A DNA stretch of 64,000 bases from Cyanidioschyzon merolae (taxonomy: Eukaryota), in the NCBI GenBank assembly GCA_000091205.1, contig AP006495.2. One strand, written 5' to 3'. Of this stretch, positions 421 to 24,680 are shown piece after piece; position 1 is the first letter of the stretch, and each line of letters starts with the position of its first letter. The notes under the pieces are model-generated. The model worked only from the letters and a program-made list of their open reading frames with translations. It made no database searches and was not told the DNA's origin. The position numbers and the translations under genes are program-made.

Positions 421-989
421 GAACATAATTAAGGTACTCCAAACCTAGACTGTTGCGCCTGGGCGTGAGCAGCCTGCGAACAATTTTACGCTGAGTTATC
501 TGTTAAAGTCTTGGACTGATCCTGTGTGAAAGATAGTTGGTTTCAGAGCTTGCTGCGGTACGAAGATCGTGACCGAAAGTCAGGAAGGTTTGCGTTAGTC
601 GCTTCGGCGTTTCACAGTACCCTTGATAAACGTTGGGCTGTGTCGAGGTATGCAATCGTAAGCGTTCCTGTTCAGCACCTCTGGAGCACCTGTTTTGGAT
701 TTGGTCTCAGCCAGTAGGAGCTCTCGCAAAACCACAGAGTTGAGCGACCATAATTTAATGTGAGTTGCGGGAGCCGTAGTTTTCGTCCGCAAAATTGCCA
801 TCAACCACGAACGACGCACTCGCTTAGGACCTCTTTTGTGTAGACTGGACAACAGCATCAAAGCTTGGGAATAAGGTTGTGCTGTATCCGGTCGAAAAAG
901 TGCACGGCGGCGTCTCCGAAACGGCCACCAGGTTGCCTCCTTTCGTGAAAACTCTCGGACTCGCCGGGCATAACACCGAAAGAGGATCT

Positions 990-3900
990 ATGCCACTTGG
1001 TTGTGGTGCGCGGTTTCTCAACGGCAGCGGCTGCGCCCCCGGTAACGACGTTAGCGTCGACCTTAATGGGAAAGTACCCGAATTTATTGACATGCAGCCG
1101 TGCAGGGAGAAATCGCATAGTGCTGCTCGCCTATCTATAGTTTCAGATGACAGCAATGTCCACGCTGCGGATCAAGCCAGGCTCCGAATCATAGCCCGGG
1201 ACGTGCGCCCGCTGAATGTTACAAAACCGGAAATCGCCAGCGTCAGATTAGTAGAGAGATCTGTGCAGCAAGATCAGGGTACGCACGTCAGCATTGATGG
1301 CTATTCTCTGCTGCTCAGTGGACAAGTCGCTGGATACTTGCGCACGCTGCAGCAGTTTCTTGATTTTGAAGTGCTAGAATGTGTCAAGCAGGAAATCGAT
1401 CGCCAGATCTGGTTCGTGGTTTCTCTAACGCCGCATCTGAAGAAAGAGCCACCAGAAAATGCAACCATTGGATTGATACCAGGTAAGCGATCCGCAACAC
1501 ATGATTCTTTTCTATGGCTTGCACGTCACCTCCTGATGGAGCGTCTCTTCGGCAGCACCCTGGAGCCGTCGCCTCGAATTCCCAGCTGCGGCGTTTATCC
1601 ATGCACAGCGTGCGACGCGAGAGATAACAGGCACTCTGCGACGCCCAAGCGTTTTCGCTTGGCGCAAGTTATCCGCGTTTTACCATCGAAACTCAAAGCT
1701 TTCCTGCATTTGAAGCACAGAGCGATGCAGCACCTCGAGAACATCTATGCGTCAGCGTATACGCAGTGCTCCTCGTTACAAACTCTGCCGGAAAATGTGC
1801 TAGTGCAGATATTTCAGCACACAGATAGCCCAACGATTTTGGCGCTTGGTCAGCTGTCGAGTTGGTTCCGCTGCCTAACGAACCCGATCGTACCCGAGCT
1901 GAATGTGGAGCTGTTTAAGCACCAGCAGGCAGCTGTCTTGTGGATGCTCTCGCGCGAGCGTCATCGAGAGCACCGATGCGGGCCAGTAGCGCCACTACCC
2001 CAGTGGAAAAACCCTCTTCTTCAGCATTTGGACGGAGATCTCTATTTCAACTGGATGCATCGGCGTCTAGAGCGCAATCAAAGCACCTGCTATGATTGTC
2101 GCGGAGGGTTGCTCTGTGATGAGCCTGGTCTGGGCAAAACCGTAACTGCACTTGCGCTGATCGCACGTACACGCAGTACAATTCCCGCCATTCCATTGTT
2201 TTCCGTAGACGTTGAGTACTTCGGCTCTTCGGAAACCGATTTGGCCGTCTTTATTTGTAAGCAAACACTACAATTCCTGGACCAGGTTATTGAGAAAGCG
2301 CGAGCGAGGCTGAGCAGAGCAAGTTTGGATGAATTCACACAGGATGTTGGAGCAGTGCGCAGTCGGCTGGAGGAGTATTCAGATATGTTTCACAACCACA
2401 TCAACGGATGCTGTACGGGACAGGTACCGGAACTGCTGCGGTTTTTGGGCAACTGGCTACAATGCCACGAAGGTGTGCTGTCATCGATCGTCGGAAGCGT
2501 TGCCGCTAAGGGCGCTATAGGAGCTTATCTGCGCCTCGTGGTCCAGCAAAACCCATACACAGCAAAGACTTGCGTATTGCCGCCATCGGAAATGTTATAT
2601 GTGCAGCCGGGACGCGAAAAACTTTGGTTCTTCATTGTTAGCGGAAAATATCTGCAGGGACCGAGCGGTTTTCTCCGTCTCGCATCGGAGGGCATTCCCG
2701 CTGCCTCCGCTGCGGGTGCTCGCTTGTGCAGGGGAGCCTCGCGGAGCACAATCCTGGAATGCGCGGGTCTGTGCGCGCTGGCGAATGAACACACTGGAAA
2801 CCAGGGCGCGGACGGTACGCTGCTCATGGAGCCATCAGAGTACGCGCAGGGACCCAGCGCAGCGATAGAGCCGTTTGCGATGCCATTTCGGAGACGGTGC
2901 AAGAGCAGGCGCGTACCAGAAATAGAGTGTGCTTTCGACTATCACCTTATTGTCTGCGTTCCAACGACACTTGTAGCATTACCCGAGAACCTGATACCTC
3001 ATTGGACGGTTCAGATACGTCGTCTCGTGCGAGCACCACATGAGCTCCGCTACTGCCTCTTCAGCCAGATTCGAAATGCTGTGGTGCGGGAAATCGCCGA
3101 CTACGATGTCGTCTTCATATCATTGAACGAACTTCGCAGCGAGTATAGCTCACTGGTTCGTGGGCTGAGCATTTTGAATCGGGTTTATTGGCTACGTATG
3201 ATTATCGACGAGGGACACTCACTGGGTTCGCTTTCATGCACCAGTCTGCAGCGCTGCTGCCTCATAGTACTAGCAGAGCGGCGATGGATCATGACTGGAA
3301 CTCCAACTCCAACTACCAAGAGTGGAATTGCAGAGGTGCATCACCTGTACCCACTTTTTTCCTTTCTTGGACTGGAACCGTTCGTATGGGCGCGCCGTGC
3401 GGTCTTCCAGCAGTGCGTTCAGCGACCGCTGGAGCGCGCACTAGGCTACGAGGGCATTCATATCCTACAGCAAACTCTAGACCATATCATGATCCGGTCC
3501 ACGAAGGAAGAGGTTCAGGACATACCTCATCTGGAAGTACGCGATGAAATGCTTTCTTTCACCAAAGAGGAGGCGGATGCCTATAATGCGCTTGTGTCCG
3601 TAGTCAAGCGTAATTTGTTCCTAGCTGACTTTTTCGACGAGAATCATCGGGAATCGCTTTTGAATCCCGAAAACAGAAAATCCGCGCGAGTTGTACTGCA
3701 GAACCTAAGGCTCTGTTGTTGCGTGACAGGCCATATGAAATTTGAAGTTATTAGAGAGGAACTCGAAGAGCTTCTTCGCACCTTAAGACAATCTATGCAG
3801 GCTGCAAAGGACAATACGAGCCCATCGTTGGGCTTTCGTTGCGGTGCAAAGCGCCACGTACCTGAGACGAATCAAGACTGGTGGAGCCCCTGTAGCGGGG

Positions 3901-5375
3901 ACGCAATTGCTGATTTCGAAAACGGAATGGATCGAGCTGTGAGCACCGGAAGCTCCACTCTAGCCCAATCATCCGATTGCAAGCGGAGAAGAGCCCAGGT
4001 CCTGATGAAGCATGATCACTCTGCGTGGAACGCTTTGGACGCCGCTCCAGCTGCCCCAGTGCGGCGGTGCCTCTGGTCGCTGAGCCCGAGCTTGGCAGCA
4101 GGCAACCTGGATCCAGAGCTTGCACAGACGGGGACCCAATCGACGGCGGTCGAAGCGCTGCGCTACCCCATGCAAGCATTCGAGTCTACGGGCATAGAGA
4201 CGGGACCTTTCGCACAACGCTGCGCACAACCTTTGCCCCCCGCAGAATCTCCTGGAGAACACTGTGGTGGGCCTCCAGCGCTCGGCGACGCCGGCGCCGA
4301 CATTGCCGCGGCACTGTCACCAGTCGATTACATAGAAGATAGACTACGTCATATTGAGCGCGTGCTTCGCGACCCTGTATATGCCCAAGGCTGTATTTGC
4401 GAATCCTGTGGTCGCATTGGCTCCCTCATGCCAATCGTTACGCCGTGTGCTCATATCCAGTGCCTTGACTGTGCGGCTACGAATAGGTATGCGTGCAACA
4501 TATGTGGCCGCAAGTATGTGCTCGGTCGCCGCCAGGAGCCGGTCGATTTGATCGAAATGCAGCCCAGCTTCACTCAAGAGGCCTGGGTTCCCAGGTGGGA
4601 TCGAAAAATGACGAGTAAGATCGCCCGCATGCTGCAGCTTCTCGGAGAGTGGTCCAGCGCGACATACACAGCGAGCCGGGAGGGCGCTCCCTGTTCTGAT
4701 CAAGGAGGCAACAGCAGACAGAGTTGTGTTGCGCACGGCAAGCGGGAAAAAGTGATCATTTACTCAAACTTTGCTCATCATTTCGACGTCATTCACTACC
4801 ATTTGTGTCAAGGAAATTTTGACTTTGCATACTATTGCTCGCGCTTGAGTCCAACAGAGCGACGCGCTCAGATCGACCGGTTCATCTACGATCCGCACAC
4901 TTGGATCCTCCTGATGGATGAAAAAGGCGCACTGGGACTCGACCTCAGCTTTGTAACACGCATGATCATCATGGAACCTGTTTGGAATCGCTCCCAAGAG
5001 CATCAGATCATAAGCAGAGCGCATCGTATTGGAGCGAAGCAGCGGGTCATTGTCTATCGTCTGATGATGGTGGACAGTGTCGAGACAGATCTGATCGATA
5101 TGAGTTCGGAACCGACACATCAAAATGGTACTGCGCGCAACTCAGACCGCCTTTCTGATGCCGGGGAGACAGACTCATACCAATACTCTGGTGTGGATGC
5201 GTCACCAAAAAAGTCCAGTGGGATTTCTCTGAGTAACAAGGAAAAAGAGGAAAAGCTCCGCCGAAATCGTCTACTGCAACGTCTACATTTTGTCGTGGCA
5301 GCATCCGGCCGCCCGGGCACAATCGCTTTCCGCCGAGTTCAGGTTTTCCGCAAGGGAGCGGCTCCCATGCCATGA
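990..5375 (+). CDS. SNF2-family helicase with an F-box-like motif and a C3HC4 RING finger (Rad5/HLTF-like architecture); the track ORF is 879-5375 with a GTG start, and the first ATG is at 990
   Basis: DEXDc motif I LLCDEPGLGKTVTALALIA; DEGH box IIDEGHSLG; RING CICESCGRIGSLMPIVTPCAHIQCLDCAATNRYACNICGRKY; helicase-C block ILLMDEKGALGLDLSFVTRMIIMEPVWNRSQEHQIISRAHRIGAKQ; F-box-like LPENVLVQIFQHTDSPTILALGQLSSWFRCL. Single 1498-aa ORF. Confidence 0.85.
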   Translation: MPLGCGARFLNGSGCAPGNDVSVDLNGKVPEFIDMQPCREKSHSAARLSIVSDDSNVHAADQARLRIIARDVRPLNVTKPEIASVRLVERSVQQDQGTHVSIDGYSLLLSGQVAGYLRTLQQFLDFEVLECVKQEIDRQIWFVVSLTPHLKKEPPENATIGLIPGKRSATHDSFLWLARHLLMERLFGSTLEPSPRIPSCGVYPCTACDARDNRHSATPKRFRLAQVIRVLPSKLKAFLHLKHRAMQHLENIYASAYTQCSSLQTLPENVLVQIFQHTDSPTILALGQLSSWFRCLTNPIVPELNVELFKHQQAAVLWMLSRERHREHRCGPVAPLPQWKNPLLQHLDGDLYFNWMHRRLERNQSTCYDCRGGLLCDEPGLGKTVTALALIARTRSTIPAIPLFSVDVEYFGSSETDLAVFICKQTLQFLDQVIEKARARLSRASLDEFTQDVGAVRSRLEEYSDMFHNHINGCCTGQVPELLRFLGNWLQCHEGVLSSIVGSVAAKGAIGAYLRLVVQQNPYTAKTCVLPPSEMLYVQPGREKLWFFIVSGKYLQGPSGFLRLASEGIPAASAAGARLCRGASRSTILECAGLCALANEHTGNQGADGTLLMEPSEYAQGPSAAIEPFAMPFRRRCKSRRVPEIECAFDYHLIVCVPTTLVALPENLIPHWTVQIRRLVRAPHELRYCLFSQIRNAVVREIADYDVVFISLNELRSEYSSLVRGLSILNRVYWLRMIIDEGHSLGSLSCTSLQRCCLIVLAERRWIMTGTPTPTTKSGIAEVHHLYPLFSFLGLEPFVWARRAVFQQCVQRPLERALGYEGIHILQQTLDHIMIRSTKEEVQDIPHLEVRDEMLSFTKEEADAYNALVSVVKRNLFLADFFDENHRESLLNPENRKSARVVLQNLRLCCCVTGHMKFEVIREELEELLRTLRQSMQAAKDNTSPSLGFRCGAKRHVPETNQDWWSPCSGDAIADFENGMDRAVSTGSSTLAQSSDCKRRRAQVLMKHDHSAWNALDAAPAAPVRRCLWSLSPSLAAGNLDPELAQTGTQSTAVEALRYPMQAFESTGIETGPFAQRCAQPLPPAESPGEHCGGPPALGDAGADIAAALSPVDYIEDRLRHIERVLRDPVYAQGCICESCGRIGSLMPIVTPCAHIQCLDCAATNRYACNICGRKYVLGRRQEPVDLIEMQPSFTQEAWVPRWDRKMTSKIARMLQLLGEWSSATYTASREGAPCSDQGGNSRQSCVAHGKREKVIIYSNFAHHFDVIHYHLCQGNFDFAYYCSRLSPTERRAQIDRFIYDPHTWILLMDEKGALGLDLSFVTRMIIMEPVWNRSQEHQIISRAHRIGAKQRVIVYRLMMVDSVETDLIDMSSEPTHQNGTARNSDRLSDAGETDSYQYSGVDASPKKSSGISLSNKEKEEKLRRNRLLQRLHFVVAASGRPGTIAFRRVQVFRKGAAPMP

Positions 5376-7279
5376 ATGCTGTACGGGGGGTTTTCGTGCG
5401 TTAACCTAGAGCCTGGACGGCAACTTTTTTAAGGCTGAACTTGTCGGCAGCGTATTCTGGCCATGGTGCCTTCTGGACGCGGAGACACGGCGAATGGCGA
5501 ACTCACAGGGCAGCAGGCGCTCCGCTTTTTCACACAAGAGCAACATCGCACGGCATGCACATCGGGAAATCGCGGGCTCCGTTGCGCATAGGAGATTATT
5601 GTTTTGCCTGGGGTTCATAGAACCGCTTGGTACAAAATACCTGGACCTTGATGTAGCTCAGAAGCGTGCCGTTTTCGCACTGCATCGTAACGTGTTCGAC
5701 GCGACAGAAGCGCCAGAGCAGCTGCGTTGCGTATGTGCGGCTATGTGACGCTAGTTGTGCATAGATTTGCTTTCGTGATCCACAGGTTATATGCTCTATT
5801 TATATTTTTATGACATGGGATTCATGCAACGAGACGGCCTCGTCCGGATAGATGCCGGCTGACAGTTCTTGTTCCAAGGATCTCGCCCTTGATGCGGATA
5901 CTTGCGGACTCGACCATGAGCCCTGGAACTGTATTCTTCTCAGAAACAATGGCTGGATTTGGCAAGTTTCCAGGAATCGCGTTTATGAGAGACGCCTTCG
6001 ATGGCGCTGGATGTGCCGCTACCGGTCCCGCAAGTGGACTGGAAGGCTCAGGCAGACCATAGCAAGGGTCAGCTCGAAGCTTGCTTCCGCGTATTACCAG
6101 TATTTAGTGCATCCCTGCGTAGTCAGGAGGAGAGCGATTCCGAATTGCGACTGCGATCCGGTCGATCTCGTCTCTTCAATCGTGCCTGAGCTGAAGTCAC
6201 GCTCGAGAAGTGCAGCTACCTGTTTGGTCCACTGAAACACATAACAATGCCGCCAATTTGGGGGCCGCAAGCAGTAGTCTGTCATCTTCGTTCTATGCGT
6301 GCTAGGACACGCGTCTACCAATGCCCACTCAAGCTCGCGTGCGAATTATGCAGAGGACTCGTTCTTGTGCACCTTTGAAGAATTTCCCGTGCGGCGTCTA
6401 ATGCTACTTAAAGCTCGTCAATGCAAAGGGAGTGGAGGCTTTTCCACCGCGGTTCCAAATAGAATCTGATTCATTCTACAAACCGTGGGGATCGGTGACT
6501 TCCATAGACGACAGAGCGGAAGCTTGCATTCTAACTTTACTTGCAGCGAGATGGTCCATTCGAAAGGAATTCACGGAACCCAGGTCAGTTCTGGCGCCAG
6601 ATTAGCTCATGGTGCGAAGAGTACGATGCGCACTAACCCAAGAGGTGTCAGAATGCGTAAATGTTTCCATCATTCCCAGGTTCGACGATATGCATGCGTT
6701 TCAACAGGTTCATGGCAACCTTCACTGCATCGGCGAGGGATGTGTGCGATTTGACGAACGTTCACTATCGTATGCAGCTCGACAACGGCAAGATTTCTAC
6801 AGCCTTCCCTGCCACGGGCCTCTCTGGGCAAAGCGCGACGCGGTCACGATCCCTTGCGTCGTCGGAGTGTTCATGGACCCACAAAAGCGTTAAAGTGGAG
6901 GTGCTGAGGTTTGGATCCGTTTAGTGCACTTCTGGTGGCGATCTGAAAGGCACTTGCACGTATTGGCACCCCCGCCAGTTACAAGAGTACCCCGACCAAA
7001 GTGCTCGCTCACGTCGCAGCAGGTGTTGCCGAAAGCAAGCACCTTCGGCTCTCTCACAGACGGCAACTTTCCCCGTCCACTCGAATATGGGCAGGAGCTG
7101 GCAAGTCCTTTTCCGTCGCTTCTCCTGGGAAGCAGGGCCGAACGTCCCCTTGCTCGTCAACTAGACACTTCATGGGGGCGGGGAGTCATCTTTTCAGCTT
7201 CATACCCAAGAACATCGTCAAAAGACCACAAACCGCAGTGGAAGCGCCTTGAGAAGAATAAAACAAATGGACGGCGCTG

Positions 7280-7420
7280 ACACCGCACACCAACAACGCC
7301 GTTCGAAAGTCGAACGACGTCGGGCGTGTACAGAAGTGGCGAGTGACCCGCCCTAGACAAGAAGTCGCCATCTGTGGCGCAGACGCCTCCCAGCCCTTTT
7401 GGACCGGCCACCTACTATTG
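7280..7420 (-). ncRNA. Candidate omega-RNA / right-end region: the last roughly 60 nt of the nuclease ORF plus about 70 nt after the stop, conserved across copies, with a subterminal hairpin cgttcga-ctt-tcgaacg
   Basis: This block is conserved at 7280-7420, 19974-20110, 52530-52660, 10746-10880 and 25580-25700 even where the coding sequence has diverged. It has a perfect 7-bp stem (7299-7315) and a ggcg.gtgac.cgcc palindromic core. The position matches where TnpB/Fanzor omega-RNAs are encoded. Confidence 0.3.
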
Positions 7421-8957
7421 CTTCCAACCCTGTCTCATATATTTCAACTTTTAGAGGTTGTCCAATGAAGTTGTCTCTCGTCAACTCTGGAGGTCTCTTC
7501 TCCAGCACCGCACATCTCCTTATATTGATTGCGGCATTAAAGTCTCTGTTAACAAATTCCGTACGTTTCTTGCCATCATTGGTTGTACACACTAATGCAA
7601 GCAGCCCTCGCACTTTCGCCCTCGTTTCCATTTGCTCCTCCATCAGCGGTCTGTACTTTGCTATTTCCTCAGGGCTCCTCTGGCACTTTTCCATTTCGAC
7701 CCTCTGAAGTGTGCACCCCAGCTCGTGGTGTGTATAGGACGTTCGGAACTCGTCTACAGGTATCGTAACGAAACGCCTTGCGCACTCCTTGTACACCCTC
7801 GTCGTTGGAGCTGGCGTAGTGCCGTTCTTGGGCGCCCAGCGCCCTGCCCCATACGTTACTACGAGCCTCTGACTTTCATTCTACTCGAGGGCGCTCAATT
7901 GATTAAAAAAATTCGCGAACGCCCGCTGCTTTTCACAGTAGAGATTCATTCGCAACCGAGCCCACCGGGGCTTGGTGTACTCCTCCCACAGCGCATCCCA
8001 ATGCGCAACGCGAACTTCCATGCATTCCCGAAAAGCTCGAAAGTCCGCTCCGCGGCTCGTCACCTCGCTCAAAGCTTCCAGGTGATCCTTCATTCCTGCT
8101 CTCCATGCCTCGATTTTCTTCCTTGCATTCATGATTCCCGATTCTCGATAGTACCTCGCTCTCGAGAATCTCAAAAGACGCATATCTTTCTGACGTAAGT
8201 TACCGTCAGTCCCATCTTCCGTACGCTTCGGTGCTGCGATGGTTATGATATTCGTATTCCCGGGGTCCGCGCCAAGGACAAAGTCGTTATCTTGCACTTT
8301 CTGGGTCGCAAGATCCGCCTCCTTCTTTTCTTCATGCTTCGCCGCGCTAACGACAATGTGGTTATCCTCCATCTCCTGCGTCGCAGAATCCGCCTCCTTC
8401 TTTTCTTCATGCTTCGTCACGTCAACGACAAAGTCGTTCTCATGCACTTTTTGCGTCGCAGGACCCACCTCCTTCTTTTCTTCATGCTTCGCCTCGTCAA
8501 CGACAAAGTCGTTATCCTCCACCTCCTGCATCGCAGGATCCTCCTCTTTGTTTTCTTCATCTTTCGTCACGGGCGCAGCTGAGGGAGGGACTGACCGATC
8601 TTTCTTCAACCGCCGATAGTGTACACACAAGGCTACTCCATCGGTTTCGATCATCCCAGTGAACAACTTTTGCTCGCTCACTCTCAGACGTTTGAAATTG
8701 AAGATATTCTTCCAGTACGTCTTCCGGTTTTCGCCGGTGAAGTCCTCCCTGCTAACAATGAACTCCGGACTGATCTCCTTCATGATGTCGTGAAGGACTG
8801 CGGAGTCGATAGTCACAAAATGTGACTTGATATTGTACAATGGAACCGCGTTGAAGCGCTTACCCATTAGGAAGGCCTTCCGTCTCTCCCACTGTTCATT
8901 TGTCTCTTCACTCAGCTTCATCTCTACTTTGCGTTCGAGTTCACGGTCCAGAAACAC
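7353..8957 (-). pseudogene. TnpB/Fanzor-like RuvC nuclease, about 535 aa, intact except for one in-frame TAG (plus-strand 7879-7881); the track splits it into 7881-8957 and 7353-7796
   Basis: Ruv[16 protein letters not shown]; a VVTYGAGRW block; zinc-finger-like DEFRTSYTHHELGCTLQRVEMEKCQ; RuvC-III FVNRDFNAAINIRRCAVLEKR. Both ORF segments are in the same frame, separated only by the TAG. The first codon is GTG (8957), and the first ATG is at 8921. Confidence 0.7.
8273..8561 (-). repeat. 75-bp (25-aa) coding tandem repeat within the N-terminal region of the nuclease ORF, about 4 units (KHEEKKEA..ATQKV.DNDFVVD)
   Basis: The DNA unit ccgcctccttcttttcttcatgcttcg recurs at 8316, 8391 and 8463. The protein shows four acidic/lysine-rich 25-aa units immediately before the RuvC-I GADPG motif. 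Confidence 0.7.
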
Positions 8958-9083
8958 AACTTAGCGCAGGACGAGGCGGTAGTATCTTTCCTTATCTTTT
9001 TTCAGCTCTGATATCTTGTCTGTTGGATTCGCCAGACCCAAAACTGCACGGTGCTCTTCTACAACTGCACGGATTACAGAATC

Positions 9084-9782
9084 CTAATTTGTGCTCCTGC
9101 GTGACGCCTTCTTGTCGACAAATTCGAACTCATCTTCACACTGTCGATTGTTCGTGATGCCATTGATAATCGTCCATATCCCCTTGCGAGAGACGCCGGG
9201 ATAGAGTGCAAACACGTCGCGTATCATGAAACGTTCGTGGTTCATCGTCAATTGGTTCTTCAGGTTCGTAATGTACTTCATTGCCCCGTATGTGTAAATA
9301 TTTCCGTCACCGCAGTATCGATTACCCTCGAAGCAGAATTCCGCGAAGTTTTCGTGGAGGACTTCCACCCGCTCATTTTCCCTCCGCGCTTCCTCTGTAC
9401 CAAGCATCAGCTGACGAATAAAGGTCTTATCGAAAAACTCGTCCGGAATCTCGACCGTTTCCATGTTCGTCACGTCGCGATACATCTCCCTCGCTAGATG
9501 CATCAGTCCTGACGACGCCTTGAAAATACTCTTGGAGTACGAATCGAAACGTTTTTCGAATGCGTCTCGCATCTTTTCCCTGTAGTGATCCTTGATATGT
9601 TTAAGAAGACCGGCTTTCGCCACCATCTCGTCGTACAGTTGTCTTTCTTGCCGCCTTAGACGTTGAGCCTCCCCCTTTCGGTTCTTCTTCTCTTCCTTTT
9701 CTTCTGGACTCGGTACTGTTTTTTGTTTTTTTCTGGCAGCCGGCGACCCTGGACCTCCAGGATCGTCGATTTGCTTTTTCAT
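9084..9782 (-). CDS. ORF-A: conserved 232-aa protein of unknown function encoded upstream of, and co-oriented with, the TnpB-like gene; it has a basic KKQK/RLRRQERQ N-terminus and a Cys/Tyr-containing C-terminal half
   Basis: ATG at 9782. Homologous ORFs or remnants occupy the same position relative to the other nuclease copies (21712-22465 and 54344-54586). No recognisable transposase motif (no HUH, DDE or serine-recombinase signature). Confidence 0.55.
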   Translation of the reverse strand: MKKQIDDPGGPGSPAARKKQKTVPSPEEKEEKKNRKGEAQRLRRQERQLYDEMVAKAGLLKHIKDHYREKMRDAFEKRFDSYSKSIFKASSGLMHLAREMYRDVTNMETVEIPDEFFDKTFIRQLMLGTEEARRENERVEVLHENFAEFCFEGNRYCGDGNIYTYGAMKYITNLKNQLTMNHERFMIRDVFALYPGVSRKGIWTIINGITNNRQCEDEFEFVDKKASRRSTN

Positions 9783-10745
9783 AGCTTTCCTATTTTAGTT
9801 TTTTTGAAAAAGAATGCTCTTTGAACCCTTGTGTTACATACAGCGAAAAACACTTGACTAGACTTGTTTGAGGGCTGAAACAGAAACGAGCTGAAAGACT
9901 GTACTTGGCTACCACCTCAACGGATATCCGACTTTTTACAGCTGAACAACACGCTCCTGGTCAGCATCGCGTTTCCCTTCAACGGCGGCATGTGCATCGC
10001 GTCAGTTGACTGCCTGATCTCCGAGATGCGTTCATTAAGCGCAATGCGTCCACCGCACGAGACGCCACTCCGATCGATGAAGGACACGTGTCCGACACCC
10101 CGCATTGGCACATGCGTGTTCGCATCGCATTGCAGCCAAACTAAAGTATCGAAAATAGGAAACTCATGTAGAACGATCTCTTGCTATAGACTCTGTCGCT
10201 GGTGCCGAAGCTACTGCCCATCGCAGTACCGCCTTGACATACATGGAAATGTTGGGACCTGACGCGATACCTCGCGATGCTTCTATCAAAAGCATAGCGT
10301 TCTCTGCGGCTTACCGTTGTGTGGATGACGTATGCATCACTCTTCTCAAAAGGAATTTCGTTAGTTTTATTCATCGTAACCAAACTAGGTACGGTGGGAT
10401 TCCTGAACACGGACATACGTTTAATGCCGATGCTTGTCATGCATGCTGCACTGACGCTGGAATGAGGAACTGACCTGAATTATGCTTCTATCCTGCGTCA
10501 TAGGCTGGTACTGGTGACCGTTCAAGTCATTTCCATGCTATCGTCGTAGCCAACTTATGGTGCCCGCTACGTTCCCCGGATCCGGTGATCATGGTAGAGG
10601 CACACCACACATGTAGCGTCCATATCTGCCAAGACGTTCGAGCCTTGCATCTCGGCTGACACGATCGAGGAACCCGACAAAAGCACATACTGTATTCTGG
10701 TCTACTCCATAAGATTAGCTTCAAGAGCCTAACCCGTACATCGAC

Positions 10746-12140
10746 GACCGCACACGCACACAAAACGCCGTTCCAAGTCGAAAGACGGCAGTGTACAGTA
10801 GTGGCGGCGAACGCGCCCTAGACAAAACGTCTCCAACTGATGTGCAGATGCTTCCTAGTTTTTCTCGACCAGTCCCCTGCTATCGGTTTCAGTTTCTCCA
10901 CGTTCACTTGGGCCTGGAGAAGCTGTCCCACAAAGTTGGTTCGCTTCAGCTCTGCGGGTCCCTTCTTCTGCACCGCAAAGCCCCATATATCAATAGCAGC
11001 ATTGAGGTCTCGCTCCACGATCCCCAAGCCTTTATTGATGCTGCTTGGACCGACCAGTGCAAGTCGTCCTCGAACTCGTGCCCTCTGTGCCAATTCCTTC
11101 TTTATCAGGTCTCCGTGTTTTTCCATCGCCGAAACGCCCCGCTGGCTCTTCTTAAAGTCGACGTTCTGAAACGTACATCCCAGCTTACATTTCCCGTGAA
11201 TTTTTCATTTCCTCAGAATGAACGCACTTCTTCGCGCCTCTAGGCGACGACCTGCCCGGAGACAGACGGACCTGCGGATGGACGACGATATGTGCCCCGG
11301 TGCGTTACATTGCGGTGCACGCTTCAGCGATTCGCCATGTGCAGCGATCATCACGTTTCACGAAAGGAAACACTCCTTCGATGCGGCTCAACCATGGACT
11401 GTACGAAGCAATGGAAAGCAGCGCTACCCCGATAGAATCGGCAAAGCCCGGGCGCGACGGGAAATAGTGCATTGGCGTATTGTCCTATATAAAAGGATAC
11501 GGCCAGGCGTCAGGGGGTGTGTCTTGAATGACTCGACGAAGTGGCTGGTGCTCTTGTATGAGCCTTCTGCAACAGCGAAACGGAGACCTCGAAATGAGTC
11601 CGCTGCAGCTGGAATAGATGATGATTTCCGAACTCTCCTTGAGTTTGGTGTTAGATATGAAGGGCGCCCTGTATGCGGATGCCCATGTACGATCCGGCTG
11701 TTTCGCGCGAAGGAGGTCTCGCCGGCTGAGCAACCGAACAGAAGCCCCTACGCCGCATACCGGCGGAGACGTTCCAGGAACTCTGCCGTTGCGATTTATG
11801 CGGAAGACAGGCATGAATGAAACAGGACTCTTTTTTGCGACTGTGTCGCAATGTCTCCAGGGCCGCACGAACGAGATGTCGACAAACAAAGACGACCGTG
11901 GTGGCTGCTATCGTCGCTTTTGGTTTCCGCAGAGTGCCTGTTGGGGCGCTTTTCTACGATTGACCGAAAACTTGCTTTAAGAATATCTGTTTACGCCGCG
12001 GAGCGAATGCACACTATTCCAGCGTTTCTCAACCATGTGAGTTCTGTGGTATGAGTGACCTGAAGAAAGAATGCAGTACACCTTGCACTGTTCAGAAACG
12101 ATATATACCCTACAGGCAACTCATCTATAATCTATGCGGC
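10746..12140 (-). mobile_element. Family II internally deleted (non-autonomous) Fanzor derivative, copy 4: right end plus a RuvC-III-only fragment, fused to a roughly 1-kb noncoding left-end-side region
   Basis: Same unit structure as 30300-31877 and 36310-37660. The 1-kb region (11150-12140) begins with ttcatttcctca.aatgaacgcacttcttcg, which resembles the left-end region of family I. Confidence 0.6.
10818..11126 (-). pseudogene. TnpB-like C-terminal fragment (RuvC-III only)
   Basis: IVERDLNAAIDIWGFAVQKKGPAELKRTNFVGQLLQAQV; identical fragment at 36345-36602. Confidence 0.55.
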
Positions 12141-14900: not shown

Positions 14901-16239
14901 TCTCCTCGGCTTTACAGACTGCCTGGAATATCCTAGAGGACACAACGCATGTTATATCCTTTTCCTAGCAGAGACTGCATAATCCAGATCGCACATAGTT
15001 CCTCCGATTGCGACATGCATCAGTTCCTGCTTGAAAATCTGCACCGATTTTTCTGGGAAAGTTTATGCGGAAAACCGTTGCCGCCCGCTTCTACCAAAAT
15101 GCACCAATACGTAGCGCGTGTTACACCGGGTTCGTATTATGTGGAAAGTGTTTCCAGAAATGGAGATGAGTCAAGGCGAGCGATGAACCGAGGACGTGTT
15201 CGTGCATTTGGCGCTGCCGTTTCTTCTGGTATGGAGGCAGCCGAGTTCGTCTCGCAAACAGATCTGGCGGATGGAAACAGAAACCCAAGGAAGTTTCTCT
15301 TGAGACACGACCTCGTTACGATCTGCTTTCAGGAGAATGCTTTCGCGGACAACGTCAGTTTCTTATTAGTTTCTGATCCAGTGCTGCGAACTCTCAGAGG
15401 AGGCGGATAACGGCTACGGGTGTTTTCATTCCGAGAAGTTGCGCACCATTGCGTTTGCACGTGCTCTCTGCTAAGCCAATTCCTTACGAAGCACGTTCTT
15501 TTGGACGTGAATCTTCCCACGGATTTCGTGAGCACGATCGAGCTTGATCACGTAGTTGTTTGCGGACTCCACTATCGCTCTTCATGAGATCTACTGGAAA
15601 AGCCTAAGAAATGCCATTGGGACGCAACGGGTAAAATGCCAGGTGCGAGCAGGTCTGCGAGCGAAACGCTTATAATTGAAGACGAGGGTGGAAGCGTTCA
15701 CGCTCAAACTGGCGAACATGCAGTTCCTACTGGCTAGCACTTGAAGTGCGGAAGGAGCTCAGCTGCACGCTTCCCGACCACGTGGTGCTTGACGGCATGG
15801 AACGAGAGCGACTCATCGAACTTGCGTTTAGCTTTCAGCCTGACCAGAGGTTTCGGTCGGACCCGAACTTCTCTTTCTGAAACCAATGCCGCAATTGGTT
15901 GCCTGACGGAAGAATGTTGAATTTGCCCTTCAGAGGGAATCAACAAAGGGTCTGCTGTGTAGACCTCTGTAGAGGCATCTTCTCTAGTTTTTGACAGTTT
16001 TACGGCGGCAAGGTACACCTTCTGACAGGGCGAATGCATCATATGGCATGGCGAGGGACTCCGCTCACCATTGATCAACTTGCACGCAACTATCGAGATG
16101 GCTCGCCCTGACCATATTTTATCTGAGCACGCCAGGGAGCCCGATGGATAGACTCAATTAGGAACACGATGTTTCACACCCATTTCAGAATAAACTGTAA
16201 GAGGTCGCCTGTTGAGCAAGTGCACGCTGACTTTTGATT

Positions 16240-17575
16240 CCCTTCATATTGTCATCAACGCCAACCTTTGCGGGATATTTATGCAGCTGCTTCCTTTTGC
16301 TCTCCCACCTCCGAGTTTAGATGCGCCCGTCTCTCATGTCGCTCCAGCTGCGCTCTCGGCAGTCGAAGGATATGGACGTCCCCGTACAAGTCAAGATTTC
16401 GTCGCTTCTGCCCGTTGTCCACGCCTTTCCTGCACAGACTGTAGTTCCGATGAACGCTTCGCTTGCCATTCTCATCTTCTGTACGTACAGTCTCGGCGCG
16501 TCATTCGAAACAGATGCACTCCGCTGTCGACATGCGTTCTAACATATCATCCACGTCGCCATGGCCGGCGGCCGCCATGCGGACCATGAACGCTGACTTG
16601 AACGCGCGCTACATGCCCTTTACGAGTGTAAGAGGTTTCCGTAGATGCCGTTCTCAGTCTCCGCGCTCGATGCCGCACCCGACGATCACGGGCTTCTTCG
16701 GCGCGATGCCTCGTTGCGTACGCTGTCCACTGCAAAAGCGAGCGCAAGCGAGCGCAAGCAAGCGCAAGCAAGCGCAAGCAAGCGCAAGCTGTTCCATGGG
16801 ATGTCGGACTCTGGGCACGCGATGCTGTCCGTGGTGAACCAAGCAACGGAAGGAGAATCCAGACGGGAGATCAAACCGTAAAATTCCGACCCGTCTGCGC
16901 TCTCTTCATGCAAAGCTGTGACTCCCTCTACGGGTTGCTATCGTGGCGATGGCTCAGGGCCGAGCCCAGACCCTTCTCCCTCGAAAACAGAAGCGATAGA
17001 AGGCTTCGGGAGCGTACGACGCCAGAAGTGTCATGCTGCTGAGGAATGCCGCGTGGTCGTTGGCAACAAAGAGAGGTACGTTTGTGGTTCGAATAGAATC
17101 GATGACTCGACGTGACATGGTTAGTGAACTTTCGCCGTGAGCTTGTGAAGGACTTGGCGGGAGGCGAAGTCGACTTTTTGCCGTCGTCAAACGACTAGAG
17201 CGAATCACAGCGCCACGAGTTGCTTCGCGACTGATAGATCGAAAATTGGAAGAACGCGTGCTTTGAGCACGCTACGAGTACGGAGCTGAGAAGGGTTGAG
17301 GCTTCTGATTGTGGGATGAAGTATGGTACAGCTTATTTTGCTAAGCTTTTCTCGAGGGCGTCGCGAATGCTTTTTACGAGAGTGGAAGAATGAATGCCCT
17401 TCTGCGAGAGTCAGAAGAGCGACCAGGAAGATACAACCGAGAATCCTAGAACTACGCATGGATCCTAGGAAGACCAGTACTGCTACATGTCGAATGTGCA
17501 GTCTATACATTTGCAAAAGTTCGGAAAACAATGAGAAATCCAGGAATAGAGGACATGGATCAGAATACCCTTTTA
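16240..17575. repeat. 1.35-kb segment B, present again in inverted orientation at 31907-33232
   Basis: Near-identical ORF translations on opposite strands: 16212-16589 (+) matches 32882-33418 (-); 16463-16837 (+) matches 32610-33008 (-); 17205-17594 (-) matches 31961-32296 (+); 17323-17640 (+) matches 31825-32169 (-). Confidence 0.7.
16736..16789. repeat. 10-bp minisatellite (agcgcaagcr) x5 inside segment B
   Basis: aagcgagcgcaagcgagcgcaagcaagcgcaagcaagcgcaagcaagcgcaagc; the inverted copy at 32701-32733 has only about 3 units. Confidence 0.8.
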
Positions 17576-19973: not shown

Positions 19974-20058
19974 CACACCGCAAAACGCCTTTCAAAAGAC
20001 AAAAGCTGTCGCCGGCAGTGCACAGCAGTGGCGAGTGACCCGCCCTGGACAAGACCTC

Positions 20059-21495
20059 TCAACTAATCTGCAGACGCCTTCCAGCTTTTCTCGACCGGCA
20101 ACCTACCAGTGATTCCAACTTTTTCTCATATACTTCCACCTTCAGAGATTGTTCCACAAAATTCCCTTTTGTCGGCCCGGGAGGTCTCTTTTCCATCACC
20201 GCACATCTACGTATACTGAAAGCGGCGTTAAAGTCTCGGTTCACGAATTCCATGCGTTTCTTCCCGTCCGTCCGACTCACTAGTGCGAGTCGCTCACGAA
20301 CTTTCGCCCTCCTTTCCATTTGCTCCTCCGTCAGCGGTCCGTACTTTTTTATTTCTTCAGGGTTCCGCTGGCACTTTTCCATCTCGGCCCTCTGAAGTGT
20401 ACAGCCCAGTTTATGGTGTGTATACGATTTTCGGAACACATCTATCGGTATCGTAACGAAACACCGTGCATACTCTTTGTAGGGTCTTTTCGCTGGAGCT
20501 GGCATAGTGCCTTTCTTGGGCGCCCATCGTCCTGCTCCGAATGCCACTACGAGCCTCTGACTGTCATCCTCCTTCAAGGCGCTCAACTCGTTGAAAAAAT
20601 TCGCGAATGCACGCTTCCTCCCACAATACATGTTCAGTCGCAGACGAGCCTACATGGGCTTCGAATACTCCTTCCACAGCGCATCCCAATGAGCAACGCG
20701 AACTTCCATGAACTCCCGAAAAGCTTTAAAGTTCGCTCCGCGGCTACTAGCCTCGCTCATAGCTTCCAGGTGATCCTTCACTCCTGGATTCCACTTCTCA
20801 AATTTCTTCCTCTCATTCATCATACCGGATTCTCGGTAGTATCTCGCTCTCGAGAATCTCAAAAGACGCATATCTTTCTGACGTAAGTTACCGTCAGTCC
20901 CATCTTCCGCACGCTTGGGCACAGCGACGGCTATAAAATTCGTGTTTCCAGGGTCAGCGCCAAAGACAAAGTCGTCCTCATGCACTTTTTGCGTCGCAGG
21001 ACCCGCCTCCTTCTTTTCTTCGTGCTTCGCCTCGTCAACGACAAAGTCGTTATCCTCCACCTCCTGCATCGCAGGATCCTCCTCTTTGTTTTCTTCATCC
21101 TTCGTCACGGGCGCAGCTGAGGGAGGGACTGACCGATCTTTCTTCAACCGCCGATAGTGTACACACAAGGCTACTCCATCGGTTTCGATCATCCCAGTGA
21201 ACAACTTTTGCTCGCTCACTCTCAGACGTTTGAAATTGAAGATATTCTTCCAGTACGTCTTCCGGTTTTCGCCGGTGAAGTCCTCCCTGCTAACATTGAA
21301 CTCAGGACTGATCTCCTTCATGATGCCGTAGAGGACGCCGGAGCCGATAGTCACAAAATGTGACTTGATATTGTACAATGGAACCGCGTTGAAGCGCTTA
21401 CCCATCCGGAAGGCCTTCCGTCTCTCCCACTGTTCATTTGTCTCTTCACTCAGCTTCATCTCCGCTTTGCGTTCGAGTTCACGGTCCAGAAACAC
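20059..21495 (-). pseudogene. TnpB/Fanzor-like RuvC nuclease, copy 2: intact except for one in-frame TAG (plus-strand 20650-20652, a TGG-to-TAG change relative to copy 1)
   Basis: [14 protein letters not shown] (RuvC-I), VVAFGAGRW, FRKSYTHHKLGCTLQRAEMEKCQ, FVNRDFNAAFSIRRCAVMEKR. The track splits it into 20650-21495 and 20059-20631, which share one frame. Confidence 0.7.
20961..21099 (-). repeat. Same 75-bp coding tandem repeat, 2 units
   Basis: EAKHEEKKEAGPATQKVHEDDFV; copy 2 has two units where copy 1 has four. Confidence 0.65.
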
Positions 21496-21711
21496 AACTT
21501 AGCGCATGACGAGGCGGTAGTATCTTTCCTTATCTTTTTTCAGCTCTGATATCTTGTCTGTTGGATTCGCCAGACCCAAAACTGCACGGTGCTCTTCTAC
21601 AACCGCACGGATTACAGAATCCTAATTTGTGCTCCTGCGTGACGCCTTCTTGTCGACAAATTCGACCTCATCTTCACACTGTCGATTGTTCGTGATGCCA
21701 TTGATAATCGC

Positions 21712-22465
21712 CTATATTCCTTTGCGAGAGATGCCCGGGTAGAGTGCAAACACGTCGCGTATCATGAAACGTTCGTGGTTCATCGTCAATTGGTTCTTCA
21801 GGTTCGTAATGTACTTCATTACCCCGTATGTGTAAATATTTCCGTCACCGCAGTATCGATTACCCTCGAAGCAGAATTCCGCGAAGTTTTCGTGGAGGAC
21901 TTCCACCCGCTCATTTTCCTCCCGCGCTTCCGCTGTACTAAGCATCAGCTGACGAATAAACGTCTTGTCGAAAAACTCGTCAGGAACATCGACTGTTTCC
22001 ATGTGCGTCACGTCGCGATACATCTCCCTCGCTAGATGCATCAGTCCTAAAGAAGCCTCAGGAAAACTCATGGAGTCCAACTCGCAACAGTTTCTGATGG
22101 ACTCCCGCAATTTTTGCTTTTACGAATTCTTGCTATGTCCGAGAAGACAGGCTTTCACGACCATCTCGTCGTACAGTCGTCTTTCTTGCAGCCATTAACG
22201 TAGGGCCTCCCCCTTCTGCTTCTTCGTCTTGTCTCGTTCCTCTATGTTTGGCTCTATGTATCGTTTTTTTCGCCAGCCAGCGATACTGGCCCTCCAGGGT
22301 CCTCCACGTCGCTGTCCAGAACATTGGTTTTTTATTTTTTGAAATAGAACGCACTATGAACGTCTCTGCTCTAAACCACGAAAAATACTCGAATACTCTT
22401 ATTTGAGGGTTGAAACACAACTGAAATAGAAGCCGTACTTGGCTACGACCTGACCGGAAATCCAA
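21712..22465 (-). pseudogene. ORF-A remnant of copy 2: premature TAG (TGG to TAG) and a degenerate N-terminal region
   Basis: 21712-22110 encodes ...GLMHLAREMYRDVTHMETVDVPDEFFDKTFIRQLML...GISRKGI then a stop where copy 1 reads GIWTIING. The upstream 22133-22465 segment is homologous at DNA level but disrupted. Confidence 0.6.
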
Positions 22466-24680
22466 CTTTTACATTACGGCCACACGCCAGAGATTAAGAT
22501 CACGTTTCCTTTCAACGGCGACATGCGCGTCGTGTCTCATGTCTGCCTGATCTCCCGGGTGCGCTCACCAAGCGCAATGCGTGCACCGCGCGAGACGCTG
22601 CACCAATCGATAAAGGCCTAAGATCGTTGCCGCGCACAACTTGCCTCTAGAGCCCGGTACGCGCTGCGCTGCACCACAGCGTGAGATGCGTCGCGCCCGG
22701 TGCGGCATTGATCGAGTTCCTGGTGCCTTCGACTGCGATCGCGGGCTCTCGCCCCGCGGAACGGCTATCTCTCTATAAGCGCTATACGTTTGCGAATTGT
22801 GTGGATGTCAGAATGACGCGCAACTGGCCGAACAGCGCCGCACAGCACTCACATAGAAGCGAGCATGGACTGAAAAGCAGGTACGGGCATAGGCACACGG
22901 CGTTGCGCCGCATGCTGCCGCCTTTCGCCGCGCAGCACACCGACCGAGGCGGCGTTCAACCGGCAACGCTCCGCGCCCCTGCCAGATATATTGCTTGGGA
23001 ATCTGCGCATCGCCGCTGCGTCGAATCGCGGGGCAGTATCGCTCCTGGCATCGCGTGCGTGCAGGTTTGGATCGATTGTGCCAGATGCGCGAGCGAGCGC
23101 GCGCGCCGCGGATCCCTGTGATCGATGTTTACCGAGATATATGCGCTGTCTATGAATAACTATTTTTGTTTGAAATGAATGCTAGATGTACAGTCTCAAC
23201 AATCGAGGTTCATCCATAACGAGTTCAGGAATGCGCAAACCGGTTTTCTGTTGAATTTTCGAGGGGTTGCTTTCGTGATTTGCAGCTGGAGTTTGTAGCG
23301 TTATGGAAAACAAAAGGATGTTGGAAACCTTCGAACAAGGATTCGTGAAATGATGGATATCAGAATCCGATGCATATGGACACGGCTCGAATCATCCTGT
23401 TTCCTTGCGAGAAGCATGCTGAAATCACGCGTGATTCAGGTTTTCGAATTTTTTGTTTCAGGGCAATTCGCGGGCGTAGCTATTTGCGCGGCTTGATTGA
23501 CAAGGCATAAACTGGACGCCACTGGTTAACGGCCTTTTCTATAAGCTCATGCAGAAAGTACCCGTAACTTTTCAGGTCGAAAAATCAGTTCAGATCGAAT
23601 GATAAATCATCCTGACTGTGTGGCCATCGACGAGTCAGGATTCGACGGCAGCATGATACACCCCGCGAGATGTGCTCACAGAGGCTTCGATCTCTTCTAG
23701 TTGCGTGGAAAGGGTTGCTCGACTCGTTGTTTTGTCCTCGCAGCGCTTGCTTCCAGTGGAGCGTGCATCGTCGCCTTGCACGAACGGCGGACAGGCGGAC
23801 CGAATTTTCCTTACTTGTTCTCCGGCTTGGATTTTACTTCCGGTACTTTTCTCATCACGGGCAACATGGCGTTCCATAAGCCCTGTATTGCCTGGGACAG
23901 TGTGCGCTAGCGCATGCAGCAGACAGTGTACTCGCCGAAAGCATTGACGATGACAAGCCCAGGATCGCAGGGAATGGCTCGAGTTCCAGAAACGGATGCG
24001 GGAATCTGTGGACGCCTTCCGTATCCGTAGAGGGCATGCACTGAGCGATAAGGCAAGCATTTATACGCCACAGGGTGACGCGCAAAGAAGCGTAAGCGGC
24101 GGTCACACGGAAGCACCTGACCACAACTAAGTGTCACAGCAGTGACGAGCGCACCAAAAATATGCACAGGAACGATGAACATGGGAAGCGAGGCCTAGAT
24201 CGCAACCTTTGCCTGTGCAAGAAATTGGTGCGCAACAGGAGTAAGCAGCAGAATACCGGACCTGAACGCTGCGGTAAACAGCTCTCAAGAGTTGGCGACC
24301 GAGCTGCAGGACTAGGAGGTACCAGCTAATTGAAAGCCAGCGGTGCGAGGGAGACGATAAGCGAGCAGTTGCAAAAAAAATCCGACACGGACTGGTGTTT
24401 ATTACAATGGGAAGAGATCAAAATTTAAGGACGTACACCTGACTTGTCTACCCGATCCCATCGAACTGTATTTTGACATGAGTGTTATCGGATCAACGTA
24501 GACGAACGCATGATCTACTGTATGATGCATCGCACATCCATCGCGTGAAGATGCTCATTCTCATCATCATGCTCGCCATGGCAAATATCATCGGGATCAA
24601 CGACCACTAGATACTTGACCGCTATGACCTTTATCGATTGTAAAGGCGCTCCGTATGTTCATAAACATCCAATGAAACCG

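Follow-up and report, generated by a model that had tools for sequence, protein, structure and literature searches.

Fanzor1 proteins are eukaryotic TnpB-like nucleases of the RuvC type, and those of their relatives that have been characterised are RNA-guided. A rearranged position of the catalytic glutamate has been described for the Fanzors (PMC11832414), and a Fanzor1 gene is carried by CMe-1, a family of transposons that was reported in 2013 from the hot-spring red alga Cyanidioschyzon merolae (Bao & Jurka, Mob DNA 4:12, PMC3627910). CMe-1 elements are ~3 kb in size, number ~150 copies and are devoid of terminal inverted repeats (PMC3627910). The published CMe-1A consensus comprises 3169 bp and the published CMe-1 protein 734 aa; the 5′ ~635–660 nt of this consensus are 95% identical to TE-N2_CMe, and the CMe-1A copies, with an identity of ~80% to the consensus, are described as old and diverged, some of them being reported as intact (PMC3627910).

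Here we analyse three CMe-1 copies located on the minus strand of a 64,000-nt stretch of DNA (hereafter, the window). The evidence makes it very likely that copies 1 and 2 are decayed CMe-1 insertions representing the ordinary decay of an already described family; a ~1-kb tract was probably exchanged between them after their death. The finding as such re-discovers CMe-1, shows the usual fate of the copies of this family, and is of small importance.

CMe-1 copies in the window and their host

The window derives from C. merolae, either from strain 10D or from one nearly identical to it: the topoisomerase I encoded by a host gene at 50380–52644 (minus strand) is identical to XP_005537132.1 of strain 10D over its entire length (706/706 residues). 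Copy 1 spans 7291–10083 (minus strand), as delimited by the alignment with CMe-1A, by homology with copy 2 (7286–10083) and, at the 3′ boundary, by a multi-copy alignment; a subgroup-specific 5′ homology extends further upstream, to at least ~10300. Nucleotides 661–3137 of the CMe-1A consensus align to 10030–7326 of the window with 84–89% identity. Copy 2 spans 19986–22616 (minus strand), with nucleotides 671–3169 of the consensus aligning to 22552–19986 (~85% identity) and the homology to copy 1 reaching up to 22616. Copy 3 (52532–54760, minus strand; 73–83% identity to the consensus) is heavily decayed, with at least six stops and ~10 frameshifting indels.

The window copies share with CMe-1A the host, the ORF and the 3′ terminus (a hairpin ending ...TTTTGAAAGGCG), and they resemble the published copies in age and divergence. 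On the other hand, nucleotides 1–660 of the consensus gave no alignment to any of the three window copies, which have other 5′ leaders replacing the TE-N2_CMe-like ~660 nt. The subfamily assignment is loose because of this absence, and the window copies could represent either a different CMe-1 subfamily or 5′-variant copies.

Gene model of copy 1

A mechanical list of open reading frames shows two ORFs in copy 1, of 232 and 358 aa (ORF-A and ORF-B). These are two halves of one 809-codon gene in a single frame (7353–9782, minus strand), which runs from an ATG at 9782 to a terminal TAG at 7353–7355 (810 codons including the stop) and contains three internal stops and no frameshift. The gene model is thereby corrected to one Fanzor1 ORF instead of two. 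The stretch between ORF-A and ORF-B is in the same frame, encodes a conserved protein sequence (DSVIRAVVEEHRAVLGLANPTDK...RYYRLVLR) and aligns with 25–55%-identical homologues as well as with the published CMe-1 protein. In fact, the entire frame of copy 1, albeit now interrupted, aligns end to end with this published single-ORF protein (75% identity over the N-terminal 428 aa and 86% over the C-terminal 330 aa). The conceptual protein of copy 1 exceeds the published one in length (809 vs. 734 aa) by three additional repeat units of 25 aa: the corresponding tandem 75-nt repeat (8267–8571, minus strand) has four units in copy 1, two in copy 2 and one in the published consensus.

The two entries in the ORF list could also be read as separate genes, or the stops as lying inside spliced introns, of which C. 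merolae has a few. The probability of this reading is close to nil: the stretch between the ORFs is in-frame and conserved in the homologues and the single-ORF CMe-1 protein, and the sole GT...AG pair around the third internal stop encloses 16 nt, the removal of which would shift the frame.

The three internal stops of copy 1 (all coordinates on the minus strand) are a TAG at codon 233 (9084–9086), a TAA at codon 274 (8961–8963) and a TAG at codon 634 (7881–7883; GAG>TAG). The first two are common to copy 2, and the third is private to copy 1 within the window. At these sites the homologue P0001, the consensus of 62 family loci and the published CMe-1 protein have Glu, Tyr and Glu, respectively. 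Codon 233 is Glu in 37 copies, and none but copies 1 and 2 have a stop there; codon 274 falls in a RYYRLILRY motif that is conserved in homologues with only 25% identity. The stop at codon 634 was the one flagged in the preliminary description, which placed it at 7879–7881, 2 nt away from its actual position; the TAG is real, and translation of the minus strand reproduced its reported context (NFFNQLSALE-TAG-NESQRLVV, where copy 2 reads KEDDSQRLVV).

Copy 1, at ~90% identity to the family consensus and free of frameshifts, is among the better preserved copies. The 810 codons of its frame contain three internal stops vs. ~38 expected in random sequence, a frame far more open than chance would produce, and three stops are compatible with as little as a few percent of neutral divergence.

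Fanzor1 motifs

Copy 1 and the family consensus both carry the GADPG, VDEF and NRDFNAAINI motifs. In copy 1 (minus strand), the RuvC-I motif GADPGNTN is at 8250–8273, with its Asp present in 52 of 61 copies, and the RuvC-III motif NRDFNAAINI is at 7521–7550. Between them, VDEFRTS (7737–7757) aligns with LLDEYKTS of SpuFz1 from Spizellomyces punctatus, and its Glu678 is the putative rearranged RuvC-II glutamate, a catalytic role suggested by this alignment. The family profile matches SpuFz1 (PDB 8GKH) with E=2.6e-12 over ~370 positions including the RuvC core. A single-sequence search of PDB sequences gave no match, and a Pfam search with copy 1 and the consensus returned only a sub-threshold hit to TNB (Cas12f1-like), at 10 bits vs. 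a cutoff of 26.3. The AlphaFold2 model of P0001, based on 14 aligned sequences, was of low quality (mean pLDDT 37.5).

The likeness of the CMe-1 family to SpuFz1 and other Fanzor1 proteins thus includes the D...E...D motifs, a K/R-rich N-terminus and a Glu in the DE(F/Y)xTS position beside the zinc-finger region, which fits the reported rearrangement (PMC11832414). In contrast, the CxxC...CxxxxC cysteines of SpuFz1 and of the homologues P0024–P0027 are replaced in the CMe-1 family by THHELGC ... VSTTNDG together with an insertion of ~25 aa, and no cysteine zinc finger was found between RuvC-II and RuvC-III in the family alignment. The window copies further differ from Fanzor1 systems in being pseudogenes, with a guide RNA as a candidate only.

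Lesions of copy 2

Copy 2 has lost the ATG, and a 1-nt deletion near 22272 shifts its frame just upstream of two TAA stops in the N-terminal region (22120–22197, minus strand; stops at 22195–22197 and 22120–22122). The remaining four of its six internal stops are a TAG at codon 203 (21712–21714; TGG>TAG), the TAG at codon 233 (21622–21624) and TAA at codon 274 (21499–21501) that are common to copy 1, and a private TAG at codon 607 (20650–20652; TGG>TAG). In addition, copy 2 reads IDVFRKS (20425–20445, minus strand) where 54 of 61 copies have VDEFRTS, a replacement of Glu678 by Val.

This inventory bears on the preliminary description, in which each copy was an intact frame interrupted by exactly one in-frame TAG, with all catalytic motifs preserved. 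Two of its observations on copy 2 were reproduced, namely the TAG at 20650–20652 in place of Trp (KPM-TAG-ARLRLN vs. KPRWARLRMN in copy 1) and a TGG>TAG change in ORF-A. The single TAG per copy does not hold for either copy (three stops in copy 1; six, a frameshift and a missing ATG in copy 2), and neither does the preservation of all motifs, given the Val in copy 2. The identity between the copies, described as 85–90%, is indeed 87% overall at the nucleotide level; it is not even, forming a mosaic along the element (see below).

That two otherwise intact and potentially active copies were each lost recently and independently through a single TAG is very unlikely. The idea draws on the different sites of the two flagged TAGs (codon 634 vs. 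codon 607), on the lack of a frameshift in copy 1, and on the presence of just one internal stop in each copy past a GTG at 8957 and 21495, respectively. However, ORF-A and ORF-B are one gene, the frame of which has two further stops common to both copies at sites with sense codons in the published consensus; copy 2 combines six stops with a frameshift, a missing ATG and E678V; the stops recur in several independent assemblies; and the tract shared by the two copies has diverged by 3.7% since its exchange. What remains of the earlier interpretation is that these are nonsense-disabled TnpB-like (Fanzor1) copies and that the two flagged TAGs arose independently; a purely independent and very recent inactivation is at odds with the shared stops and the divergence of the tract. 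Outcomes that the preliminary description had itself named as speaking against it were observed: exact alignment revealed a frameshift in copy 2, and lesions occur in each of the near-full-length relatives examined.

Recurrence of the stops in independent assemblies

The TAG at codon 634 is present in two independent assemblies, L011 (99.5% identical) and L045 (98.7%). The TAG at codon 607 is found in L082, L083 and L084, and the stops at codons 233 and 274 in L082 and L083. Codon 203 of copy 2 is polymorphic, with TAG in L082 and TGG in L083. The recurrence of identical stops in metagenomes that were assembled independently shows that they are not sequencing or assembly errors. An origin in such errors, with the real loci being intact, is extremely unlikely, even though contigs do break or mis-join within these repeats (L011 begins inside copy 1, and L082 is a hybrid) and many indels of the family are located in A-runs: the stops are the same across different samples and assemblers, and the lesions are substitutions rather than homopolymer errors.

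Copy 1 differs from L011 at seven sites, six of which are third codon positions, and selection on copy 1 was considered as a cause. Five of these differences lie close together in the repeat region, where the contig ends, and most of them represent consensus alleles, which points to conversion or chimerism and not to selection.

Shared tract and exchange between dead copies

Copies 1 and 2 have the same orientation and are separated by 12.7 kb. Along the element their identity is 65–79%, then 92–100%, then 72–89%. The near-identical tract (approximately 8430–9480 in copy 1, minus strand) is ~1 kb long and holds both shared stops; the two copies are 93–100% identical there, as opposed to 72–81% in the flanks. 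Within it copies 1 and 2 are each other's closest relative, and their flanks are closer to other members of the family. The divergence between the two copies in the tract amounts to 3.7%, whereas the window differs from the corresponding region of another assembly by 0.5%. The location of the shared stops in a high-identity tract with diverged flanks points to gene conversion or recombination between dead copies; since TAG233 and TAA274 are inside the tract, the copies would have been already dead at the exchange. Gene conversion, a chimeric element and a mis-assembly across the repeat would all leave the same pattern; a metagenome contig, L082, joins the 5′ side of copy 1 to the 3′ side of copy 2.

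A plausible order of events would start with an ancestral element that encoded a single long Fanzor1 protein and had conserved hairpins in its ~60-nt 3′ tail. Once inserted, the copies would have evolved neutrally and collected missense changes, nonsense mutations and A-run indels. Copies 1 and 2 would then have swapped the central ~1-kb tract once at least one of them had TAG233 and TAA274, the private stops TAG634 of copy 1 and TAG607 of copy 2 lying outside the tract. Stops that spread between neighbouring dead copies by exchange can make old pseudogenes resemble recent, independent breaks.

Decay across the family

The majority consensus derived from 62 distinct loci among 80 fetched has an intact ORF of 809 codons. 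In each of the 43 near-full-length loci examined, the ORF is interrupted. This differs from the published account of CMe-1A, in which some copies are intact (PMC3627910). The earlier suggestion that intact copies may exist elsewhere is accordingly possible for the family and does not extend to the two loci studied here, which are interrupted in the sampled assemblies.

Substitutions private to one copy are distributed flatly over the three codon positions (563∶566∶517), and those shared between copies are concentrated at third positions (3893∶2918∶5817). The private substitutions comprise 238 synonymous, 890 nonsynonymous and 44 stop changes, in agreement with the random expectations of 21.7% synonymous and 4.4% stop; this neutrality test is indicative rather than exact, because the private class is distorted by saturation (transition/transversion ratio 0.5 vs. 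1.4 in near-identical pairs). The flat spectrum of private substitutions was also considered as a sign of something unnatural, an idea rejected since near-identical pairs give 305 transitions and 216 transversions, which identifies the flatness as a saturation artefact. A RIP-like mutation process would fit the two TGG>TAG changes of copy 2; it is no general explanation, because the stops of copy 1 are transversions.

The same data bear on whether TAG (and TAA) might be decoded or read through by recoding or a suppressor, with the long frame still being translated. Copy 1 does retain a long single frame, and TAG is the commonest stop lesion of the family. However, its 56 among 121 distinct events (with 30 TAA and 35 TGA) are as expected from codon content (61 TAG, 39 TAA and 21 TGA); TAA and TGA lesions are just as frequent, as are frameshifts; the stop positions vary among copies and have sense codons in the consensus, and the private substitutions look neutral. 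No tRNA gene was found within the 64-kb window. Of the 17 host ORFs in the window, six end in TAG (eight in TGA, three in TAA), which confirms TAG as a genuine stop and rejects an alternative genetic code. As the preliminary description had assumed, programmed readthrough is not supported, because TAA and TGA lesions occur, TAG is not in excess and host genes terminate with TAG; we regard it as extremely improbable.

The 3′ tail and the potential of the consensus

The 3′ tail of copy 1 (7291–7352, minus strand) has two conserved hairpins and may represent a guide-RNA scaffold or a hairpin of the DNA terminus. Folding of individual sequences showed compensatory variation, the terminal stem being formed either by TTCGA/TCGAA or by TTTTTC/GAAAGR. 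RNAalifold applied to 50 3′ ends gave a weak overall signal with a single small covarying hairpin, a yield limited by the alignment being out of structural register at the terminal stem. A search of the 3′ end against Rfam produced no match. The arrangement is reminiscent of IS200/IS605 TnpB and its omega-RNA, which likewise show conservation and structure at the 3′ end of a RuvC nuclease gene and at the transposon end next to it, and a role of the tail as RNA may be proposed from these sequence features. Unlike IS200/IS605 elements, CMe-1 resides in a eukaryotic host and encodes no TnpA, and it differs also by the weak TNB score and the lack of an Rfam match.

The copies allow an intact consensus to be reconstructed for tests of a Fanzor1 from a hot-spring alga. 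We consider it unlikely that the family consensus or the best-preserved locus encodes an active Fanzor1 without the canonical cysteine zinc finger, that the 3′ hairpins serve as a guide-RNA scaffold, and that the copies have been homogenised by ectopic gene conversion; copies 1 and 2 would still be dead. If true, an alga that is acidophilic and moderately thermophilic would have an active Fanzor1, in a family partly homogenised by frequent exchange between dead copies. The best-preserved type of locus (L001) is damaged at just two places: the A-run at nt 51 has slipped by 1 nt, and codon 775 reads TAA. Codon 767, close to the latter, is hypervariable and reads TAG in 13 copies.

CMe-1 elements in the window

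The other ORFs of the window are eukaryotic (topoisomerase I, RRN3, P5A-ATPase, a RETICULATA-like protein and glutaredoxin), and the topoisomerase I is identical over 706/706 residues to XP_005537132.1 of Cyanidioschyzon merolae strain 10D. One Fanzor1 family, CMe-1A, has been described in C. merolae, its ~150 copies each matching a ~3.2-kb consensus at ~80% identity, without terminal inverted repeats and with its class given as unknown; "some individual elements" were stated to be still intact (Bao & Jurka 2013, PMC3627910). The consensus DNA and protein from the supplementary files of that study matched all three long copies on the minus strand of the window: consensus nt 661-3137 corresponds to copy 1 (10030-7326, minus; 84-89% DNA identity), nt 671-3169 to copy 2 (22552-19986, minus; ~85%), and copy 3 (52532-54760) is 73-83% identical. 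The window copies differ from the consensus in being without its first ~660 nt. What had been noticed are dead copies (two, in truth three) of a published, already known transposon family.

The conceptual protein of copy 1 shares 75% (N-terminal 428 aa) and 86% (C-terminal 330 aa) identity with the published 734-aa CMe-1 protein, which has E, Y and E at the three copy 1 stop sites. The copy 1 product is longer (809 versus 734 aa) because of three extra 25-aa tandem repeat units. This 75-nt repeat (acidic, KHEEKKEA..ATQ.V.DNDFVV) immediately precedes the RuvC-I motif, with four units in copy 1 (8267-8571), two in copy 2 (20958-21107) and one in the published consensus.

When 5.8 billion proteins were searched, every match was a metagenome ORF. 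The longest, P0001 (752 aa, 76% identical), is uninterrupted across the junction of ORF-A and ORF-B, the two reading frames initially distinguished in each copy; it shows E, Y, E and W at the four stop sites carried by the two copies from that junction onward (codons 233, 274, 607 and 634). Remoter homologs (P0024-P0027, ~25% identical) bear the TnpB/Cas12f zinc-ribbon domain (Pfam PF07282), and the family profile matched the Spizellomyces punctatus Fanzor1 structure (SpuFz1, 8GKH) with E=2.6e-12 over ~370 positions. The GADPG, VDEF and NRDFNAAINI motifs are present, and the family glutamate adjoining the zinc-finger region would, judging from homology, correspond to the catalytic glutamate that is "rearranged" in Fanzors (PMC11832414). 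In contrast to SpuFz1 and P0024-P0027, which have four zinc-finger cysteines, CMe-1 has THHELGC ... VSTTNDG and a ~25-aa insertion. This region (7680-7733 in copy 1) is likewise replaced in the family consensus and still displays coding constraint (shared substitutions 55:45:100).

Lesions in copies 1 and 2

Translation of copy 1 gave a single continuous 810-codon frame from the ATG at 9782 to a terminal TAG at 7353-7355; ORF-A and ORF-B share this frame, and the stretch joining them (DSVIRAVVEEHRAVLGLANPTDKISELKKDKERYYRLVLR) is conserved protein sequence. The preliminary description held each copy to be one intact frame with exactly one TAG, and so a single mutation short of intact. In fact, both have several lesions. 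Copy 1 contains three internal stops on the minus strand (TAG 9084-9086, codon 233; TAA 8961-8963, codon 274; TAG 7881-7883, codon 634), and copy 2 has six in the same frame (22195-22197, 22120-22122, 21712-21714, 21622-21624, 21499-21501 and 20650-20652, minus); copy 2 also lacks an ATG and has lost 1 nt near 22272. Codons 233 and 274 are stops in both copies. The TAG originally recognized in copy 1, between NFFNQLSALE and NESQRLVV, is present on the minus strand, albeit two bases away from the 7879-7881 first assigned to it; copy 2 indeed reads KEDDSQRLVV at this site. The TAG of copy 2 at 20650-20652 (KPM TAG ARLRLN versus KPRWARLRMN in copy 1) was confirmed, as was the TGG-to-TAG change in its ORF-A (21712-21714). 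The in-frame stops in both copies bear out their nonsense inactivation. The suggested preservation of all catalytic motifs fails in copy 2, which has IDVFRKS where VDEFRTS is expected.

These stops were compared with 80 related loci fetched from hot-spring metagenomes and three orthologous copy-2 loci obtained by exact protein look-up. TAG634 of copy 1 also occurs in L011 (99.5% identical) and L045 (98.7%), TAG607 of copy 2 in L082, L083 and L084, and TAG233 together with TAA274 in L082 and L083; codon 203 is polymorphic (TAG in L082, TGG in L083). Since the same stops recur in these metagenome loci, assembly errors are ruled out as their source.

Recoding or readthrough is also unsupported. 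Host ORFs in the window end with TGA (8), TAG (6) or TAA (3), so TAG is, as originally argued, a true stop, and the window contains no tRNA gene. Nor is TAG over-represented among the distinct stop lesions family-wide: 56 TAG, 30 TAA and 35 TGA were observed, against 61, 39 and 21 expected from consensus codons and the observed spectrum.

Probable sequence exchange between the two copies

Copies 1 and 2 are mosaic in their similarity: they match at 65-79% over the 5' part, at 92-100% over ORF nt ~300-1350 and at 72-89% over the 3' part. The central tract, which holds both shared stops, is the sole part in which they are mutually nearest relatives; the flanks are nearer to other loci. The pattern is most simply explained by gene conversion or recombination, once the stops were present, between neighbouring copies lying in the same orientation. 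Divergence of the tract since the exchange is 3.7% (differences 9:10:16 over codon positions); the window differs from L011 by only 0.5%. With two stops in common and a tract this diverged, the earlier view of purely independent, very recent inactivation is wrong.

Contig L082 (Ga0080006_1136386; locus positions 1482-3679 and 2010-8408) is a copy 1/copy 2 hybrid, in which the copy 1 upstream flank and 5' part (10610-8416) are joined to the copy 2 3' part and downstream genes (to 16233). Its junction is either that of a recombinant haplotype or duplication, or a mis-join across the near-identical tract.

Decay across the family

When each locus was aligned pairwise to the copy 1 coding sequence, no near-full-length copy proved free of both stops and frameshifts. 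None of the 43 near-full-length loci has an uninterrupted ORF; L001 stays open the longest, over 793 codons, and carries TAA at codon 775 and the loss of 1 nt from an A-run at nt 51, while the next longest open stretch has 621 codons. The 752-aa ORF recurs in several assemblies, and no longer product is present in the database clusters. A majority consensus derived from 62 distinct loci yields an ORF of 809 codons without interruption. Single-copy substitutions are even over codon positions (563:566:517), with synonymous/nonsynonymous/stop counts of 238/890/44, near random expectation; shared substitutions lean to third positions (3893:2918:5817). This is the usual transposon pattern of selection while a lineage is active and neutral decay after insertion, the neutrality test being indicative rather than exact because the private class is transition-depleted by saturation.

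Recurrent 1-2-nt indel hot spots, all A-runs, occur across many loci at ORF nt ~51, ~781-788 and ~874-884 (in copy 1, window ~9732, ~8995-9002 and ~8899-8909); at nt ~881 a C-to-A change first makes an A7 run, and slippage follows.

Element architecture

The ~60 nt 3' of the stop codon, conserved in all copies including solitary 3' fragments, comprise two hairpins. The terminal stem is preserved as two variants, GTCGTTCGA-CTT-TCGAACGGC and ACGTTTTTC-TTTT-GAAAGRCGT, with folding energies of -10 to -16 kcal/mol for the majority of copies. One pair in the inner hairpin covaries (19 C-G versus 18 G-C). An Rfam search of the 3' end gave no match. By analogy with TnpB elements, the hairpins may represent a guide-RNA scaffold or a terminal DNA hairpin.

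Codon 767 (7482-7484 in copy 1) is hypervariable (TTG 14, TAG 13, TGG 10, CTG 9, TCG 5), and past it the third-position bias of shared polymorphisms is almost nil (22:23:31). In some subfamilies the native ORF may have terminated there, the last ~125 nt being constrained as RNA or DNA, not protein.

Solitary 3' fragments (last ~120 codons and 3' tail) lie at 1-162, 10788-11185, 25594-26098, 27262-27393(+), 30452-30636 and 36303-36662, all except one oriented like the three long copies; the second to fifth of these are also matched by the CMe-1A consensus DNA. They resemble the 3'-overabundance reported by Bao & Jurka for Chlamydomonas Fanzor1 families. A young ~1-1.25-kb repeat (10881-12135, 30885-31839 and 36357-37613; 97.9-98.7% identical among copies) is fused to a diverged Fanzor 3' fragment and may be a non-autonomous element with the Fanzor 3' end.

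A 5' leader of at least 520 nt (10084-10610) is common to copy 1 and a subgroup of metagenome loci (L004, L007, L023, L030, L033 and L037) and missing from copy 2 and the published consensus, so alternative 5' modules exist within the family.

Other features of the window

The 3' terminus of copy 2 (19986) lies 12 nt upstream of the ATG of a monothiol glutaredoxin (19973-19971, minus), placing the element in the immediate 5' region of that gene. A ~1.35-kb inverted duplication (16224-17575 and 31917-33247; 98-99% identity) has one arm adjoining the start of a PRPP synthetase gene (17531). Two stretches of at least 300 nt, 100% identical and 20.5 kb apart, form a direct repeat (39354-39653 and 59903-60202).
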